A stretch of 64,000 nucleotides of DNA from Anas platyrhynchos (lineage: Eukaryota). A program made the position numbers and the translations under genes. Location of the stretch: the NCBI RefSeq assembly GCF_047663525.1, contig NC_092617.1, positions 5,639,550 through 5,703,549 on the forward strand, given 5' to 3'. The notes below the pieces were generated by a model. It was not told the origin of the DNA, did not search any database, and saw only the letters and a list, made by a program, of their open reading frames with translations. Numbering within the stretch: the stretch's first letter is position 1; the number at the start of each line of letters is the position of its first letter. Below, in pieces: positions 22,301 to 25,436 of this stretch.

Positions 22301-23854
22301 TTCAACGCGGCCCCAAACTGGGGGGTACTGGTGGGGGACGCCCTGGGGCTGCCCGAGCCCCGCCTGCGCCAGCAACTGGTGCAGCACCAGGGGAAGGTAA
22401 CTGGGAGCACTGGGAGGCGCTGGGAGGGGGTTTGGGGGGGGCTGGGGGGGGACTGGGAGGGACTGGGAGGCACTGGGAAGGGGTTTGGGGGGGGTTAAAG
22501 GGGACTGGGAGGGAACTGGGATATACTGGGAGTGACTGGGAGGGGACTGGGAGGGGGTTAAGGGGGACTGGGAGGGCACTGGGATGAACTGGGAGGGATT
22601 GGGAGGGGGTTGTTGGTTAGTGGGGGGGAACTGGGATGAACTGGGAGTAAACTGGAATATACTGGGAGCAACTGGGAGGGACTGGGAGGGGGTTTGGGGG
22701 GCATATGGGGGGACTGGGAGGGGGCTGGGATGTACTGGGAGGGGACTGGGCCATACTGGGAGGGACTGGGAGGGACTGGTAAGGGGTTAAAGGGGACTGG
22801 GAGGGTACTGGGAGGATACTGGGAGGGAACTGGGATATACTGGGAGGGACTGGGAGGGGGTTAGGGAGGATTGGGGGGTATTGGGATTTACTGGGAGGGT
22901 ACTGGGAGGGCACTGGGTTATACTGGGAGGGACTGGGATGAACTGGGAGGGGGTCTGGGGAGGTGTGGGCATACAGGGAAGGCCTGGGCTATACTGGGAG
23001 GGAGCTGGGGGGCACTGGGGTGTACTGGGAGGGGACTGGGATGAACTGGGAGGACACTGGGATATACTGGGAGGGACTGGGAGGGGACTGGGGCATACTG
23101 GGATATACTGGGAGGGGTCTGTGCTACTTTATACTGGTTTGTACTGGGCCGTACCAGTTTGTACCAGTATATACTGGTCCGTACTGGTCCATACTGGTTT
23201 ATACTGGTCCATACTGGTTTGTACTGGTTTATACTGGTCCGTACTGGTCTATTTATACTGGTCCTTACTGGTGTATACTGGTTTGTACTGGGCTATACCA
23301 GTTTGTACCAGTATATACCGGTCCGTACTGGTCCCTACTGGTCCCTACTGGTCCGTACTGGTCCCTACTGGTCCGTACTGGTCCTTACTGGTTTATACTG
23401 GTTCTTACTGGTCTATTTATACTGGTCCTTACTGGTGTATACTGGTTTGTACTGGGCTATACCAGTTTGTACCAGTATATACCGGTCCCTACTGGTCCGT
23501 ACTGGTCCATACTGGTCTATACTGGTCCCTACTGGTCCGTACTGGTCCTTACTGGTTTATACTGGTTCTTACTGGTCTATTTATACTGGTCCTTACTGGT
23601 GTATACTGGTTTGTACTGGGCTATACCACTTTGTACCAGTATATACCAGTCCCTACTGGTCCATACTGGTCCCTACTGGTCCATACTGGTCCGTACTGGT
23701 CCTTACTGGTTTATACTGGTTCTTACTGGTGCAGACGTTCTCCTTCGTGTCCATCCGGGTCCCGTCCCCGCTGTCCCTGGTGGTCAACGGGCGCCGCCCC
23801 CCCCCCTCGGCCGCCGCCCCCCCCCGGCTGCAGTGCTCCAACCCCCCCAATTAA
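4228..23854 (+). CDS. TTC5: TTC5 (tetratricopeptide repeat domain 5, Strap) complete CDS, join(4228..4311,8187..8232,9033..9104,11637..11848,14344..14467,17060..17151,18636..18692,18866..19012,21325..21500,22252..22396,23735..23854), 1275 nt, 424 aa
   Basis: Spliced translation is colinear with vertebrate TTC5 (ALRALEEMVAELYRFKD; EEEMERTVQRMEAV; ALKLQPGLAPAWTRLGEARW TPR; YVLGNAYVSLFFAGGQSPEAARRALGAYAQA; EKIDPAAAANPDLHLNRAT; LLQYQERYGAALEGLARAAALAPEW; GKVRGKRLRGLLGSLPP; VSVFNAAPNWGVLVGDALGLPEPRLRQQLVQHQGK; TFSFVSIRVPSPLSLVVNGRRP). All junctions are GT-AG and the phases are consistent. Confidence 0.85.
4330..8160. repeat. ~3.8 kb complex tandem array in TTC5 intron 1 built from ~40-bp subunits GCCTGGTTGCCATGGAAACGAGGCCTAGAGGGGGACAAG and GGAGATTTGGGGTGAAAAAGTCCCGTTTCTATGG
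   Basis: Direct reading. Confidence 0.9.
8187..8232 (+). CDS. TTC5: TTC5 exon 2 (EMVAELYRFKDSLRL+G)
   Basis: Acceptor tttttttccccccag; donor G|GTGACA lies within the first unit of the 21-bp intronic repeat. Confidence 0.85.
8233..8940. repeat. 21-bp minisatellite GGTGACAAAAACACCCCTAAG (~34 units), TTC5 intron 2; period is a multiple of 3
   Basis: Direct reading. Confidence 0.9.
9033..9104 (+). CDS. TTC5: TTC5 exon 3 (GDGGRLAALEEEMERTVQRMEAVH+G)
   Basis: Acceptor ccaaaaag; donor G|GTGAGC; matches human EMEKTLQQMEEVVG. Confidence 0.85.
9110..10740. repeat. 20-bp minisatellite AACCCAAAAACCCCGCCCAG (~80 units), TTC5 intron 3; every unit carries an Sp1 GC box CCCCGCCC
   Basis: Direct reading. 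Confidence 0.9.
10800..11630. repeat. 22-bp minisatellite AAGCCCCGCCCACCTCCATT (~35 units), TTC5 intron 3; GC box in every unit
   Basis: Direct reading. Confidence 0.9.
11637..11848 (+). CDS. TTC5: TTC5 exon 4 (VSPQGRGRALLLRARALEAAPGGRGRAEAALGRALKLQPGLAPAWTRLGEARWSHGDITGATRCFQGALAH)
   Basis: Acceptor ccctcag chosen because it keeps the frame; donor CAT|GTAAGT; TPR region matches human [33 protein letters not shown]. Confidence 0.75.
11860..12930. repeat. 21-bp minisatellite GGGGTTATAGGGTCAATATTG (~50 units), TTC5 intron 4
   Basis: Direct reading. Confidence 0.9.
13340..14335. repeat. ~1 kb polypyrimidine tract (T5-8 C2-3)n on the plus strand, TTC5 intron 4, ending at the exon 5 acceptor
   Basis: Direct reading. 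Confidence 0.9.
14344..14467 (+). CDS. TTC5: TTC5 exon 5 (CDDPEAHRLLSMALRRGGSLQEGLAQAEAAVRCDPTAGSSW+T)
   Basis: Acceptor ccccccaaaag; donor T|GTGAGT; matches human CRNKVSLQNLSMVLRQL..DGRSW. Confidence 0.85.
14470..16400. repeat. ~160-bp higher-order repeat, about 12 tandem copies (GGGGGCTTTTGGGGGGTCCCTATGGGGTCAGCGGGTCGGGG...GGGCTAAAGGGGGAGGTTCTAGG...), TTC5 intron 5
   Basis: Monomer restarts at ~14495, 14655, 14815, 14975, and so on. Confidence 0.9.
17060..17151 (+). CDS. TTC5: TTC5 exon 6 (YVLGNAYVSLFFAGGQSPEAARRALGAYAQA)
   Basis: Acceptor ttttttcccccag; donor GCG|GTAGGC; matches human [31 protein letters not shown]. Confidence 0.85.
17160..18560. repeat. CCCTATAGGGCC / GGGGTCTCTATGGGGCCCTATAG family arrays, TTC5 intron 6
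   Basis: Direct reading. Confidence 0.85.
18636..18692 (+). CDS. TTC5: TTC5 exon 7 (EKIDPAAAANPDLHLNRAT)
   Basis: Acceptor ccccccccccgtcag; donor ACG|GTACGG; matches human EKVDRKASSNPDLHLNRAT. Confidence 0.85.
18693..18865 (+). promoter_or_regulatory. TTC5: Three and a half tandem ~48-bp units, each carrying CAGCCAATGG (CCAAT) plus GGGCGGG (GC box), filling TTC5 intron 7; the last unit supplies the exon 8 acceptor
   Basis: Direct repeat reading. Confidence 0.5.
18866..19012 (+). CDS. TTC5: TTC5 exon 8 (LLQYQERYGAALEGLARAAALAPEWAEPRMRHARLLDFLGRLCALLGNR)
   Basis: Acceptor gcgcgcag lies in the last unit of the CCAAT/GC repeat; an in-frame alternative acceptor 15 nt upstream (ctcag|ccaatggg) is possible; donor CGC|GTGAGT; matches human [28 protein letters not shown]. 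Confidence 0.75.
19090..21300. repeat. G4T4-like arrays (GGGGGATTTTGG)n, 19090..20470, then 21-bp GGGGCCATTTGGGGTGGATTT units, 20470..21300; TTC5 intron 8
   Basis: Direct reading. Confidence 0.9.
21325..21500 (+). CDS. TTC5: TTC5 exon 9 (GKVRGKRLRGLLGSLPPSLLGPLGGVPTLLGSLRFGANPGRALLGRVLFSLTPDEGVP+CT)
   Basis: Acceptor ttccctccttttag; donor CT|GTGAGT; matches human GKVKTKKLQSMLGSLRP..KVVFSLTTEEKVP. Confidence 0.85.
21700..23730. repeat. (GGGACTGGGAGG)n arrays (21700..22100, 22400..23130) and 12-bp (TACTGGTCCNTA)n arrays (22100..22250, 23130..23730); TTC5 introns 9-10
   Basis: Direct reading. Confidence 0.9.
22252..22396 (+). CDS. TTC5: TTC5 exon 10 (L TLGVADGAGAVAAVSVFNAAPNWGVLVGDALGLPEPRLRQQLVQHQGK)
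   Basis: Acceptor tactggtgcag comes from the 12-bp TACTGGT satellite; donor AAG|GTAACT; matches human [47 protein letters not shown]. Confidence 0.85.
23735..23854 (+). CDS. TTC5: TTC5 terminal exon (TFSFVSIRVPSPLSLVVNGRRPPPSAAAPPRLQCSNPPN*), stop TAA 23852..23854
   Basis: Acceptor tcttactggtgcag, again from the TACTGGT satellite; matches human [23 protein letters not shown]..RPQCE*. Confidence 0.9.
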   Translation, partial: TFSFVSIRVPSPLSLVVNGRRPPPSAAAPPRLQCSNPPN

Positions 23855-23878
23855 CCAATTACCCCCCTCATTAACGCG

Positions 23879-23886
23879 TGACGTCA
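23879..23886. promoter_or_regulatory. Perfect palindromic CRE (TGACGTCA) 25 nt after the TTC5 stop codon, followed by GC boxes (23890..23945)
   Basis: Exact 8-mer consensus. Confidence 0.4.
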
Positions 23887-23899
23887 TCAATCCGCGCCC

Positions 23900-25122: not shown

Positions 25123-25129
25123 CGTTAAC

Positions 25130-25235
25130 GAGGTATCAAAATTAAAAGGGGGCGGGGCCAACGGCGGGGAGGGGGCGGGGCCAAACAGGGAGGGGGCGGG
25201 GCCACAGGAGGAGGGGGCGGGGCTAAATTGGGGGG
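25130..25235. promoter_or_regulatory. Four tandem GC boxes (GGGGCGGGGCC) with ~25-bp spacing, inside the presumed HNRNPC 3' UTR region
   Basis: Direct reading. Confidence 0.4.
25141..25146 (+). terminator. TTC5: ATTAAA poly(A) signal candidate on the plus strand (possible TTC5 3' end; would imply a ~1.3 kb 3' UTR spanning the YY1 array)
   Basis: Hexamer only; no AATAAA elsewhere in the GC-rich 23855..25140 interval. Confidence 0.3.
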
Positions 25236-25352
25236 GGGGGAGGGGCACAACACCACGAACACGGGGAGGGGGGGGAGGGGAGGGGGATGGGGGGGGGGGT
25301 CCCGGCCTTCACCGTTCTGCGCTCGCGATTTTTGGGGTGAAAAACGGCGATT

Positions 25353-25436
25353 TTAGGAGTCATCCTCGCCGTTGGCGCTGTCCCGGTCGTCCTCGCCCTC
25401 CTCGGCTTCTTTCTCATCCCCCTTGATGGATTCCAG
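25353..25436 (-). CDS. HNRNPC: HNRNPC terminal exon ([27 protein letters not shown]), stop TAA at plus 25355..25353
   Basis: Acceptor ttttcgcag; C-terminus identical to human except L/S and D/G substitutions. Confidence 0.92.

Follow-up and report, generated by a model that had tools for sequence, protein, structure and literature searches.

A convergent TTC5–HNRNPC gene pair in the duck, most simply derived from an old rearrangement on the neognath stem

How did TTC5 and HNRNPC, which lie about 0.9 Mb apart at human 14q11.2, come to face each other tail to tail in a duck, and where do their transcripts end? The window analyzed here is a stretch of 64,000 nt from Anas platyrhynchos (NCBI RefSeq assembly GCF_047663525.1, contig NC_092617.1, positions 5,639,550 to 5,703,549 of the forward strand), to which all positions refer unless another genome or contig is named. 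Within it, TTC5 (+) and HNRNPC (−) converge, with stop codons at 23852-23854 and 25355-25353 and a gap of 1,498 bp (23855-25352) between them. A preliminary description had attributed this arrangement to a rearrangement or large deletion in this lineage and had named one candidate ATTAAA polyadenylation (poly(A)) signal for each gene. Our analysis points instead to an old rearrangement that took place on the lineage to neognaths, is not specific to ducks and is most simply an inversion, with a spacer that would combine a minisatellite of the TTC5 flank with a conserved HNRNPC poly(A) site, and with some TTC5 read-through. We consider this overall account probable. Our confidence is high for the adjacency and its age and close to even for any transcript overlap in the duck.

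The tail-to-tail pair is present in duck, chicken and a passerine, the blackbird Agelaius, and absent in ostrich and in the turtle Carettochelys. The loci compared are:

Blackbird: APEX1 (−), OSGEP (+), TTC5 (+) and HNRNPC (−), with the TTC5 end at 15755 and the HNRNPC stop near 17412
Ostrich: TTC5 at 753,862-770,063 (−) and HNRNPC at 24,027-26,077 (−), both on one chromosome, in tandem with 728 kb between them
Turtle: TTC5 and HNRNPC 3.9 Mb apart and divergent, with CCNB1IP1 directly upstream of TTC5

In the blackbird, the two stops are 1.65 kb apart and the spacer has the same layout as in the duck, consisting of the array, the HNRNPC poly(A) module and a GC-box untranslated region (UTR). 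In the chicken, the RefSeq proteins XP_040550010.1 (TTC5-like) and XP_040549994.1 (HNRNPC) are encoded on one shared scaffold of 321,869 bp. No HNRNPC was found within 10 kb 3′ of TTC5 in the emu, and no TTC5 within 10 kb 3′ of HNRNPC in the alligator, where nothing was called in that interval and RPGRIP1, an olfactory receptor and HNRNPC lie together. Because the pair occurs in duck, chicken and passerine, is absent in ostrich and turtle and has no partner within 10 kb in emu or alligator, parsimony most simply places its origin on the neognath stem, before the divergence of Galloanserae and Neoaves. The palaeognath–neognath split dates, by our own estimate, to more than 100 million years ago. 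The amniote comparison therefore bears out that synteny differs from human and that the adjacency is a derived rearrangement, and the refuting case named in the preliminary description, ancestry of the adjacency in all non-mammalian vertebrates, does not hold; the attribution to the duck lineage was too narrow, as the pair is also found in passerine and chicken.

An inversion most simply explains the pair. As judged from the loci sampled, inverting the ostrich segment that reaches from HNRNPC to the gene 3′ of TTC5 yields the duck order TTC5 (+), HNRNPC (−), SUPT16H (−). The large deletion suggested earlier is unnecessary because genes that intervene in human still flank TTC5 upstream, namely OSGEP and APEX1 in the blackbird and CCNB1IP1, followed by a 2,521-aa TEP1-sized gene, in the ostrich. 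The human order is TTC5, CCNB1IP1, PARP2, TEP1 ... HNRNPC, RPGRIP1, SUPT16H, CHD8, and the same set of genes travels together in the genomes compared: in the duck, HNRNPC has SUPT16H upstream of it on the same strand, RPGRIP1 is head-to-head with HNRNPC in ostrich and alligator, and CCNB1IP1 is directly upstream of TTC5 in ostrich and turtle. Unlike in human, duck TTC5 is inverted relative to HNRNPC and only 1.5 kb away from it.

The outer flanks of the pair differ as well. No match to the meiotic crossover gene CCNB1IP1 (HEI10) was found within 4 kb upstream of duck TTC5 with a probe that gave a clear match in the ostrich; OSGEP and APEX1 take its place in the blackbird. Comparing window positions 1-4300 with the upstream flanks of blackbird, ostrich and emu by tblastx returned repeat-versus-repeat matches only. 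Directly upstream of HNRNPC in ostrich and alligator lie an olfactory receptor and RPGRIP1, of which no remnant was detected between duck HNRNPC and SUPT16H (39200-54800): a tblastx search of 39200-54900 against the ostrich and alligator RPGRIP1 and olfactory-receptor flanks gave no match. Both genes may have been lost or relocated in the duck lineage. In the pigeon Patagioenas, one gene model (P0052) fuses TTC5 TPR sequence with RABGGTA domains, which suggests that TTC5 has yet another neighbor there, or that the annotation merged two genes. No paper discussing the TTC5–HNRNPC adjacency turned up in the library searched.

Both genes were first located with sequence probes and then rebuilt from the window sequence, with TTC5 exons delineated by tblastn and manual splice reading:

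4237-23854 (+): TTC5 coding span, approximate, with an ATG near 4237 in a GC-rich first exon
near 8184, near 9056, 11636-11884, 14344-14508 and 17062-17151 (+): confident TTC5 exons, 5′ part
18636-18701, 18860-19012, 21325-21500, 22251-22396 and 23735-23854 (+): confident TTC5 exons, 3′ part
23735-23854 (+): last TTC5 coding exon, TFSFVSIRVPSPLSLVVNGRR...CSNPPN-stop, with TAA at 23852-23854 inside CCAATTAAC
25353-39129 (−): HNRNPC coding region, all introns GT-AG, with SUPT16H upstream on the same strand
39129-38889, 36610-36535 (C1) or 36610-36496 (C2, alternative donor) and 36381-36334 (−): HNRNPC exons, first part
33227-33067, 28144-28043, 25682-25531 and 25436-25353 (−): HNRNPC exons, later part, with the stop codon TAA at 25355-25353
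54790-64000 (−): 3′ part of SUPT16H (SPT16), the next gene upstream of HNRNPC, with an acidic tail and running past the window end

Joined end to end, the TTC5 exons align over nearly their entire length with solved structures of human and mouse TTC5, 8bpo, 6t59 and 4abn (E ~1e-103; phmmer, residues 14-407), and the OB domain matches 2xvs (E 1.3e-37; phmmer), with homologs carrying PF16669. TPR repeats followed by an OB-fold, together with this near-complete alignment, identify the gene as the TTC5 ortholog. Its closest protein is Anas platyrhynchos XP_071885812.1, and identity to mallard TTC5 is 96-100% in most exons without being complete along the whole sequence; the 5′ exon boundaries are uncertain across a repeat-rich stretch at 8.2-9.1 kb. 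The HNRNPC model matches the RRM structure 2mxy (E 1.8e-60) more strongly than RALY 1wf1 (E 6.9e-41) and also matches the HNRNPC oligomerization peptide 1txp. With its RRM, leucine-zipper oligomerization segment and acidic C-terminus, it is the ortholog of HNRNPC and not of the paralog RALY. The spliced C1 form (287 aa) matches RefSeq Anas XP_068524924.1/XP_071885824.1 exactly and the C2 form (300 aa) equals XP_068524918.1; these proteins belong to Anas acuta and, by accession series, to Anas platyrhynchos. The duck TTC5 and HNRNPC RefSeq proteins are encoded on one shared contig of 6,328,656 bp. The identities and stop positions (23854 and 25353) given in the preliminary description, about 1.5 kb apart, were confirmed by this exon rebuilding and by the structure and RefSeq matches. 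SUPT16H was recognized by eye in the translations, and we take this identity as presumed.

The two neighbors evolve at different rates. TTC5 changes very fast in birds, with ~55% identity between chicken and duck and ~65% between duck and ostrich; only a few percent of HNRNPC residues differ between chicken and duck. Between the YRFKD and LEEEMER motifs of TTC5 (8220-9055) lies a GGTGACAAC-type tandem repeat that the mallard RefSeq model reads partly as coding, and chicken TTC5 carries an acidic, glycine-rich insert at the same position; this looks like a variable, repeat-derived low-complexity insertion. In HNRNPC, the alternative 5′ splice site of C1 and C2 (36535 versus 36496, minus strand), which adds a 13-residue insert, is kept from mammals to duck.

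Looking at the spacer from TTC5 to HNRNPC, the following parts can be delineated:

23855-23950 (no strand): unique GC-rich stretch just 3′ of the TTC5 stop with a cAMP response element (CRE)-like palindrome, TGACGTCA (23879-23886), and GC boxes, read directly
23951-25095 (+): minisatellite of ~30 units with a period of mostly 33-35 bp and the core GGCnGCCATCTTGGGTGTGGC, identified by TRF
25095-25146: AT-richer island of 52 bp holding both ATTAAA hexamers
25147-25239: 21-bp GC-box repeat (GGGGCGGGGCC, 4.3 copies)
to 25352: G-rich stretch reaching the HNRNPC stop

The spacer would thus have two parts, a short HNRNPC 3′ UTR of ~250 nt and a ~1.15-kb YY1-like minisatellite of the TTC5 flank. On the HNRNPC strand, the minisatellite core reads GCCACACCCAAGATGGC, combining a CACCC box with a YY1-like AAGATGGCGGC motif. 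For the word GCCATCTTGG, 23 copies were counted in the window where 0.22 would be expected, every one of them on the plus strand (21 copies in the minisatellite, two in the TTC5 promoter region). Within 23900-25110 there are 30 GCCATNTTG motifs in a single orientation; AAGATGGCGGC and GCCATNTTG correspond to the YY1 consensus, so that the array has, judged by sequence, the makeup of tandem YY1 sites. Six GCCATnTTG motifs also lie in the TTC5 promoter and first exon (3800-4300), oriented as in the 3′ array, and in the ostrich the motif occurs 12 times in opposite orientation in the 2 kb just upstream of TTC5 (L001 8000-10000), overlapping the CCNB1IP1 call.

Arrays 3′ of TTC5 in ostrich, blackbird and duck have the core GGCnGCCATCTTGG in common, with periods of 36, 25-29 and 34 bp, respectively, and in the emu, too, TTC5 is followed on its 3′ side by an array, in the KMAA frame. 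Since ostrich and emu carry this core next to the TTC5 3′ end as well, the minisatellite appears to belong to the TTC5 3′ flank and to predate the rearrangement. This would place the neognath breakpoint at the distal edge of the array, at ~25095/25096, against the HNRNPC poly(A) module. In ostrich and emu, the array sits between TTC5 and an opposite-strand exon (MAAPEPGLLPYLEQLCAHHDFLCQ...; ostrich L001 29389-29111, emu L012 46080-45626, both minus strand), which Pfam matches to the NUT family (E 1e-13); searching for homologs of the ostrich exon gave no result. One frame of the ostrich and emu arrays is open for 176 codons and encodes 12-residue KMAA/NMAAP repeats.

We scanned 23700-25500 for 14 poly(A) hexamer variants on both strands. 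The only hexamers inside the gap are the two ATTAAA sequences of the preliminary description, at 25141-25146 (+) and 25122..25117 (−); the unique stretch 23855-23950 held none of the variants on either strand. The elements relevant to the 3′ ends are:

25095..25146 (−): HNRNPC poly(A) module TTAATTTTGATACCTCGTTAACG-ATTAAA-GGACGGATGGTTTGTAA, with its signal at 25122..25117 and predicted cleavage near 25100
25100..25352 (−): predicted HNRNPC 3′ UTR of ~250 nt, including the GC-box repeat 25147-25239
25141..25146 (+): ATTAAA on the TTC5 strand, reverse complement of the TTTAAT at the start of the HNRNPC module
25477..25482 (+): AATAAA, followed by T-rich sequence, in the last HNRNPC intron, from the hexamer scan

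The minus-strand hexamer is most likely the HNRNPC poly(A) signal. It is canonical, is followed by the U/GU-rich sequence GGACGGATGGTTTGT and keeps its orthologous position in five sauropsids: TTAATTTTGATACCTC, the hexamer position and GTTT(G/T)TA do not vary among duck, blackbird, ostrich, alligator and turtle, and because of this invariance the hexamer is more than a chance occurrence. The hexamer itself is ATTAAA in duck and blackbird and AATAAA in the other three species, in which the module lies ~170-250 nt past the HNRNPC stop. The blackbird HNRNPC UTR carries the same GC-box repeat as the duck. Cleavage would then occur near 25100 in the duck.

For TTC5 we looked at the stop codon itself. 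In the ostrich, the TTC5 stop sits inside the canonical signal CCAATAAAG (L001 26198-26203), and the duck counterpart, CCAATTAAC, is a one-base degenerate variant, AATTAA at 23849-23854, past which no canonical hexamer follows for 1.28 kb. An ancestral TTC5 poly(A) signal thus appears to have overlapped the stop codon and to have decayed in the duck. Because of this decay, some TTC5 transcription probably continues past the minisatellite and reaches the 3′ end of HNRNPC. Such transcripts could end by way of the fortuitous ATTAAA at 25141, or they could skip the HNRNPC 3′ UTR by splicing and join the last HNRNPC coding exon, both read in antisense.

The second route is suggested by chicken RNA. 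Four Logan RNA-seq contigs (L007-L010), from runs in two SRA accession series, contain the full spliced HNRNPC coding sequence followed by the full spliced TTC5 coding sequence in antisense, and a fifth contig carries the same protein. They were assigned to chicken as their TTC5 is 99% identical to the cluster containing Gallus gallus XP_040550010.1. HNRNPC has no stop in the joined contigs and reads ...DDS-SLTQ..., whereas RefSeq chicken HNRNPC stops after DDS, a form seen on 82 contigs. Because of this normal stop, the junction appears to be a minor RNA form and not genome sequence; a reading of the contigs as contiguous DNA with the HNRNPC stop deleted was rejected on the same grounds. In TTC5 sense, the chicken junction gcgttaacgag/gaatcgtcctc corresponds to the duck sequence minus 25133-25356. 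The related features are:

25133..25356 (+): candidate GT-AG intron of 224 nt, with donor cgttaacgag/GTatca and acceptor gattttAG/gagtcatcc
25132/25357 (+): predicted duck splice junction, ...ATCGTTAACGAG/GAGTCATCCTCGCC...
Chicken junction flanks: GACGATTCC-TCGTTAACG, with CGTTAACGAG and GAATCGTCC as the sides predicted to be parted by a GT...AG interval

The candidate intron would take the antisense HNRNPC 3′ UTR and stop codon out of a TTC5 read-through transcript. On the simplest reading, a GT-AG splice in chicken TTC5 read-through skips the antisense HNRNPC 3′ UTR and joins antisense sequence of the last HNRNPC coding exon, and an unstranded assembler merges this spliced transcript with HNRNPC mRNA into the joined contigs. 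Both splice sites are present in the duck, where the intron may likewise be used. It is speculative that the plus-strand AATAAA at 25477 ends such a spliced transcript. The antisense overlap raised in the preliminary description is thereby made plausible by chicken RNA; in the duck it stays putative.

Several points weigh against this account. The blackbird has an AATAAA 45 nt after the TTC5 stop, so that overlap is not general to the pair, and an anatid-like RNA contig (L011) ends 19 nt past the TTC5 stop, which fits proximal cleavage, a contig end being weak evidence. The distance from the TTC5 stop to the donor is ~50 nt in chicken versus 1.28 kb in duck; the chicken geometry may thus not be transferable, and the TTC5 3′ end proposed for the duck is tentative. 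Logan contigs are chimeric past the TTC5 5′ end, with ARPC1A-like (L008 2565-3020) and olfactomedin-like (L007 2281-4059) joins, a caution for their use as linkage evidence. Regarding the age of the pair, the sample is thin, consisting of three neognath lineages, two palaeognaths and two non-avian reptiles, and a scaffold of the quail Cyrtonyx montezumae has no HNRNPC within 10 kb 3′ of TTC5. On this scaffold (L005 7394-17380), an 18-bp satellite spanning 1.7 kb comes after TTC5, beyond it lies lower-GC DNA with a CR1 reverse transcriptase, and TTC5 is truncated at the scaffold end; this neighborhood could be a misjoin or a secondary rearrangement. Finally, the locus is probably the counterpart of chicken chromosome 34, an assignment drawn from the listing of SUPT16H, CHD8 and OSGEP in one supplement (PMC12954441).

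The strongest alternative holds that the transcripts do not overlap: TTC5 would be cleaved just past its stop via the degenerate AAUUAA, the minisatellite would be an untranscribed spacer or insulator, and the 3′ ends would lie ~1.2 kb apart. We regard this as a serious contender that falls somewhat short of an even chance. The ostrich AATAAA overlapping the homologous stop and the end of the anatid-like contig are in its favor, as is the blackbird, where TTC5 terminates proximally with its own AATAAA and a GT-rich element before the array. The conservation of the array core while its period varies from 25 to 36 bp also hints at constraint. Against it, no U/GU-rich element follows the duck AATTAA, AATTAA is not among the commonly used poly(A) hexamer variants, and chicken RNA shows TTC5-strand transcripts reaching the last HNRNPC exon.

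The next alternative is the original proposal of a lineage-specific rearrangement or large deletion in which both ATTAAA hexamers, 25 bp apart, are used and the 3′ ends abut or overlap by ~60-70 nt; we consider it unlikely. Both hexamers exist, they are the sole canonical ones in the gap, TTC5 lacks a canonical signal for 1.28 kb, and the adjacency is absent from ostrich and turtle, with no partner gene within 10 kb in emu and alligator. The adjacency is, however, common to passerine and chicken, and the genes that intervene in human are kept beside TTC5. Of the two signals assigned earlier, the one for HNRNPC stands, and the one for TTC5 appears to be a by-product of the HNRNPC module: the hexamer at 25141 needs no TTC5 explanation because its sequence arises when a conserved stretch of this module is read on the opposite strand. 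Downstream of it lies the G-rich GC-box repeat and no U/GU-rich element. It is kept in three species without TTC5 as the neighbor (ostrich, alligator and turtle), and the blackbird, with TTC5 as the neighbor, has ATTAAC. The hexamer is thus present without a U/GU element and without conservation beside TTC5, and it provides no evidence for a TTC5 poly(A) site, its use being unsupported.

A further-reaching idea, that TTC5–HNRNPC forms a conserved neognath sense–antisense unit with read-through via a selectively maintained YY1 array, an antisense splice and coupled expression, is tentative and in our view improbable. If it were true, a tubulin-autoregulation factor and a major hnRNP would be coupled by transcriptional interference or RNA duplex, and the minisatellite would be a tunable terminator or insulator.

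It is very unlikely that the common ancestor of birds, or of sauropsids, already had the pair and that palaeognaths, crocodilians, turtles and mammals each lost it through a separate break. The region is rearrangement-prone, and ostrich, turtle and human all differ from one another, but several independent losses would be needed versus one gain. In addition, ostrich and emu share another 3′ neighbor of TTC5, the opposite-strand NUT-like exon, and alligator and ostrich share the grouping of RPGRIP1, olfactory receptor and HNRNPC, the first 10 kb 3′ of HNRNPC being free of gene calls. A false join in a repeat-rich microchromosome, to which the 82% tandem repeat of the window, the minisatellite at the junction and the deviating quail scaffold could point, has a negligible chance given an independent blackbird assembly with the same order, orientation and spacer architecture, chicken RNA contigs from both accession series joining the two genes and the shared RefSeq contig of the duck genes.

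The favored account of an old neognath rearrangement can be set against known systems. Convergent gene pairs with overlapping 3′ ends (cis natural antisense transcripts, cis-NATs) are common in vertebrate genomes. The duck pair resembles them in its opposite strands and facing 3′ ends, and the chicken contigs, which link both mRNAs, imply that at least one transcript extends into the terminal exon of the other. It is unlike them in that the duck stops are 1.5 kb apart with a minisatellite in between, and overlap and regulatory effect are only putative in the duck.

The convergent pair would lie on a GC-rich, repeat-saturated microchromosome, the counterpart of human 14q11.2. TRF masked 82% of the window (1-64000) as tandem repeat, and the unmasked islands are mostly exons of TTC5, HNRNPC and SUPT16H. 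Its G/C and A/T skews are strong and strand-asymmetric, and the picture as a whole is one that avian dot chromosomes typically show. Sequence and exon ‘stuttering’ has been described for avian dot chromosomes, with arrays that differ between related species (PMC12954441), and the stuttering genes SUPT16H, CHD8 and OSGEP are listed there for chicken chromosome 34 (PMC12954441 supplement); that work contains no TTC5 and no TTC5–HNRNPC adjacency and names HNRNPC once, in a supplementary table. The duck introns and spacer are likewise filled with imperfect short tandem repeats, and copies of exon edges lie in adjacent introns, so that tandem-repeat content and exon-fragment copies both agree with stuttering:

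37153-37070 (exon 2 copy 37132-37086), 34317-34269 and ~26540-26600 (−): copies of HNRNPC exon edges (exon 2, start of exon 4, exon 6)
57423-57536 versus 56962-57164: SUPT16H exon copy

The blackbird has at least seven copies of the start of HNRNPC exon 2 (L006 23341-24584). Unlike stuttering arrays, the spacer array keeps a single core motif in ostrich, blackbird and duck.

The array further resembles YY1-site arrays such as that of the Peg3 imprinting control region (PMC4196374) in its tandem AAGATGGCGGC-like motifs in one orientation. This likeness is one of sequence alone, and YY1 binding, methylation and imprinting in the duck are purely putative. Mouse DXPas34 is a 34-bp repeat, similar to the ~34-bp period of the duck array; birds are not known to imprint. 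Unlike in Peg3 and DXPas34, the duck array lies between two 3′ ends and not in a promoter or first intron, while the ostrich and emu array sits just downstream of the first called exon of the NUT-like gene.

Convergent pairs and lineage-specific inversions are ordinary, and TTC5–HNRNPC is a well-documented instance that leaves the understanding of such pairs unchanged. Two side observations stand out: the read-through splice predicted for TTC5, and a YY1-like array of long standing, whose core motif would have survived, by our own estimate, for over 100 million years on chromosomes with an otherwise fast turnover of repeat arrays. For avian genomes, this analysis assigns to the neognath stem a change of synteny at the locus that corresponds to human 14q11.2 and would place one breakpoint within a few bases, between the TTC5-flank minisatellite and the HNRNPC poly(A) module. 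It also yields a concrete prediction: if the two housekeeping genes overlap in antisense, RNA reads spanning 25132/25357 should occur in the duck.

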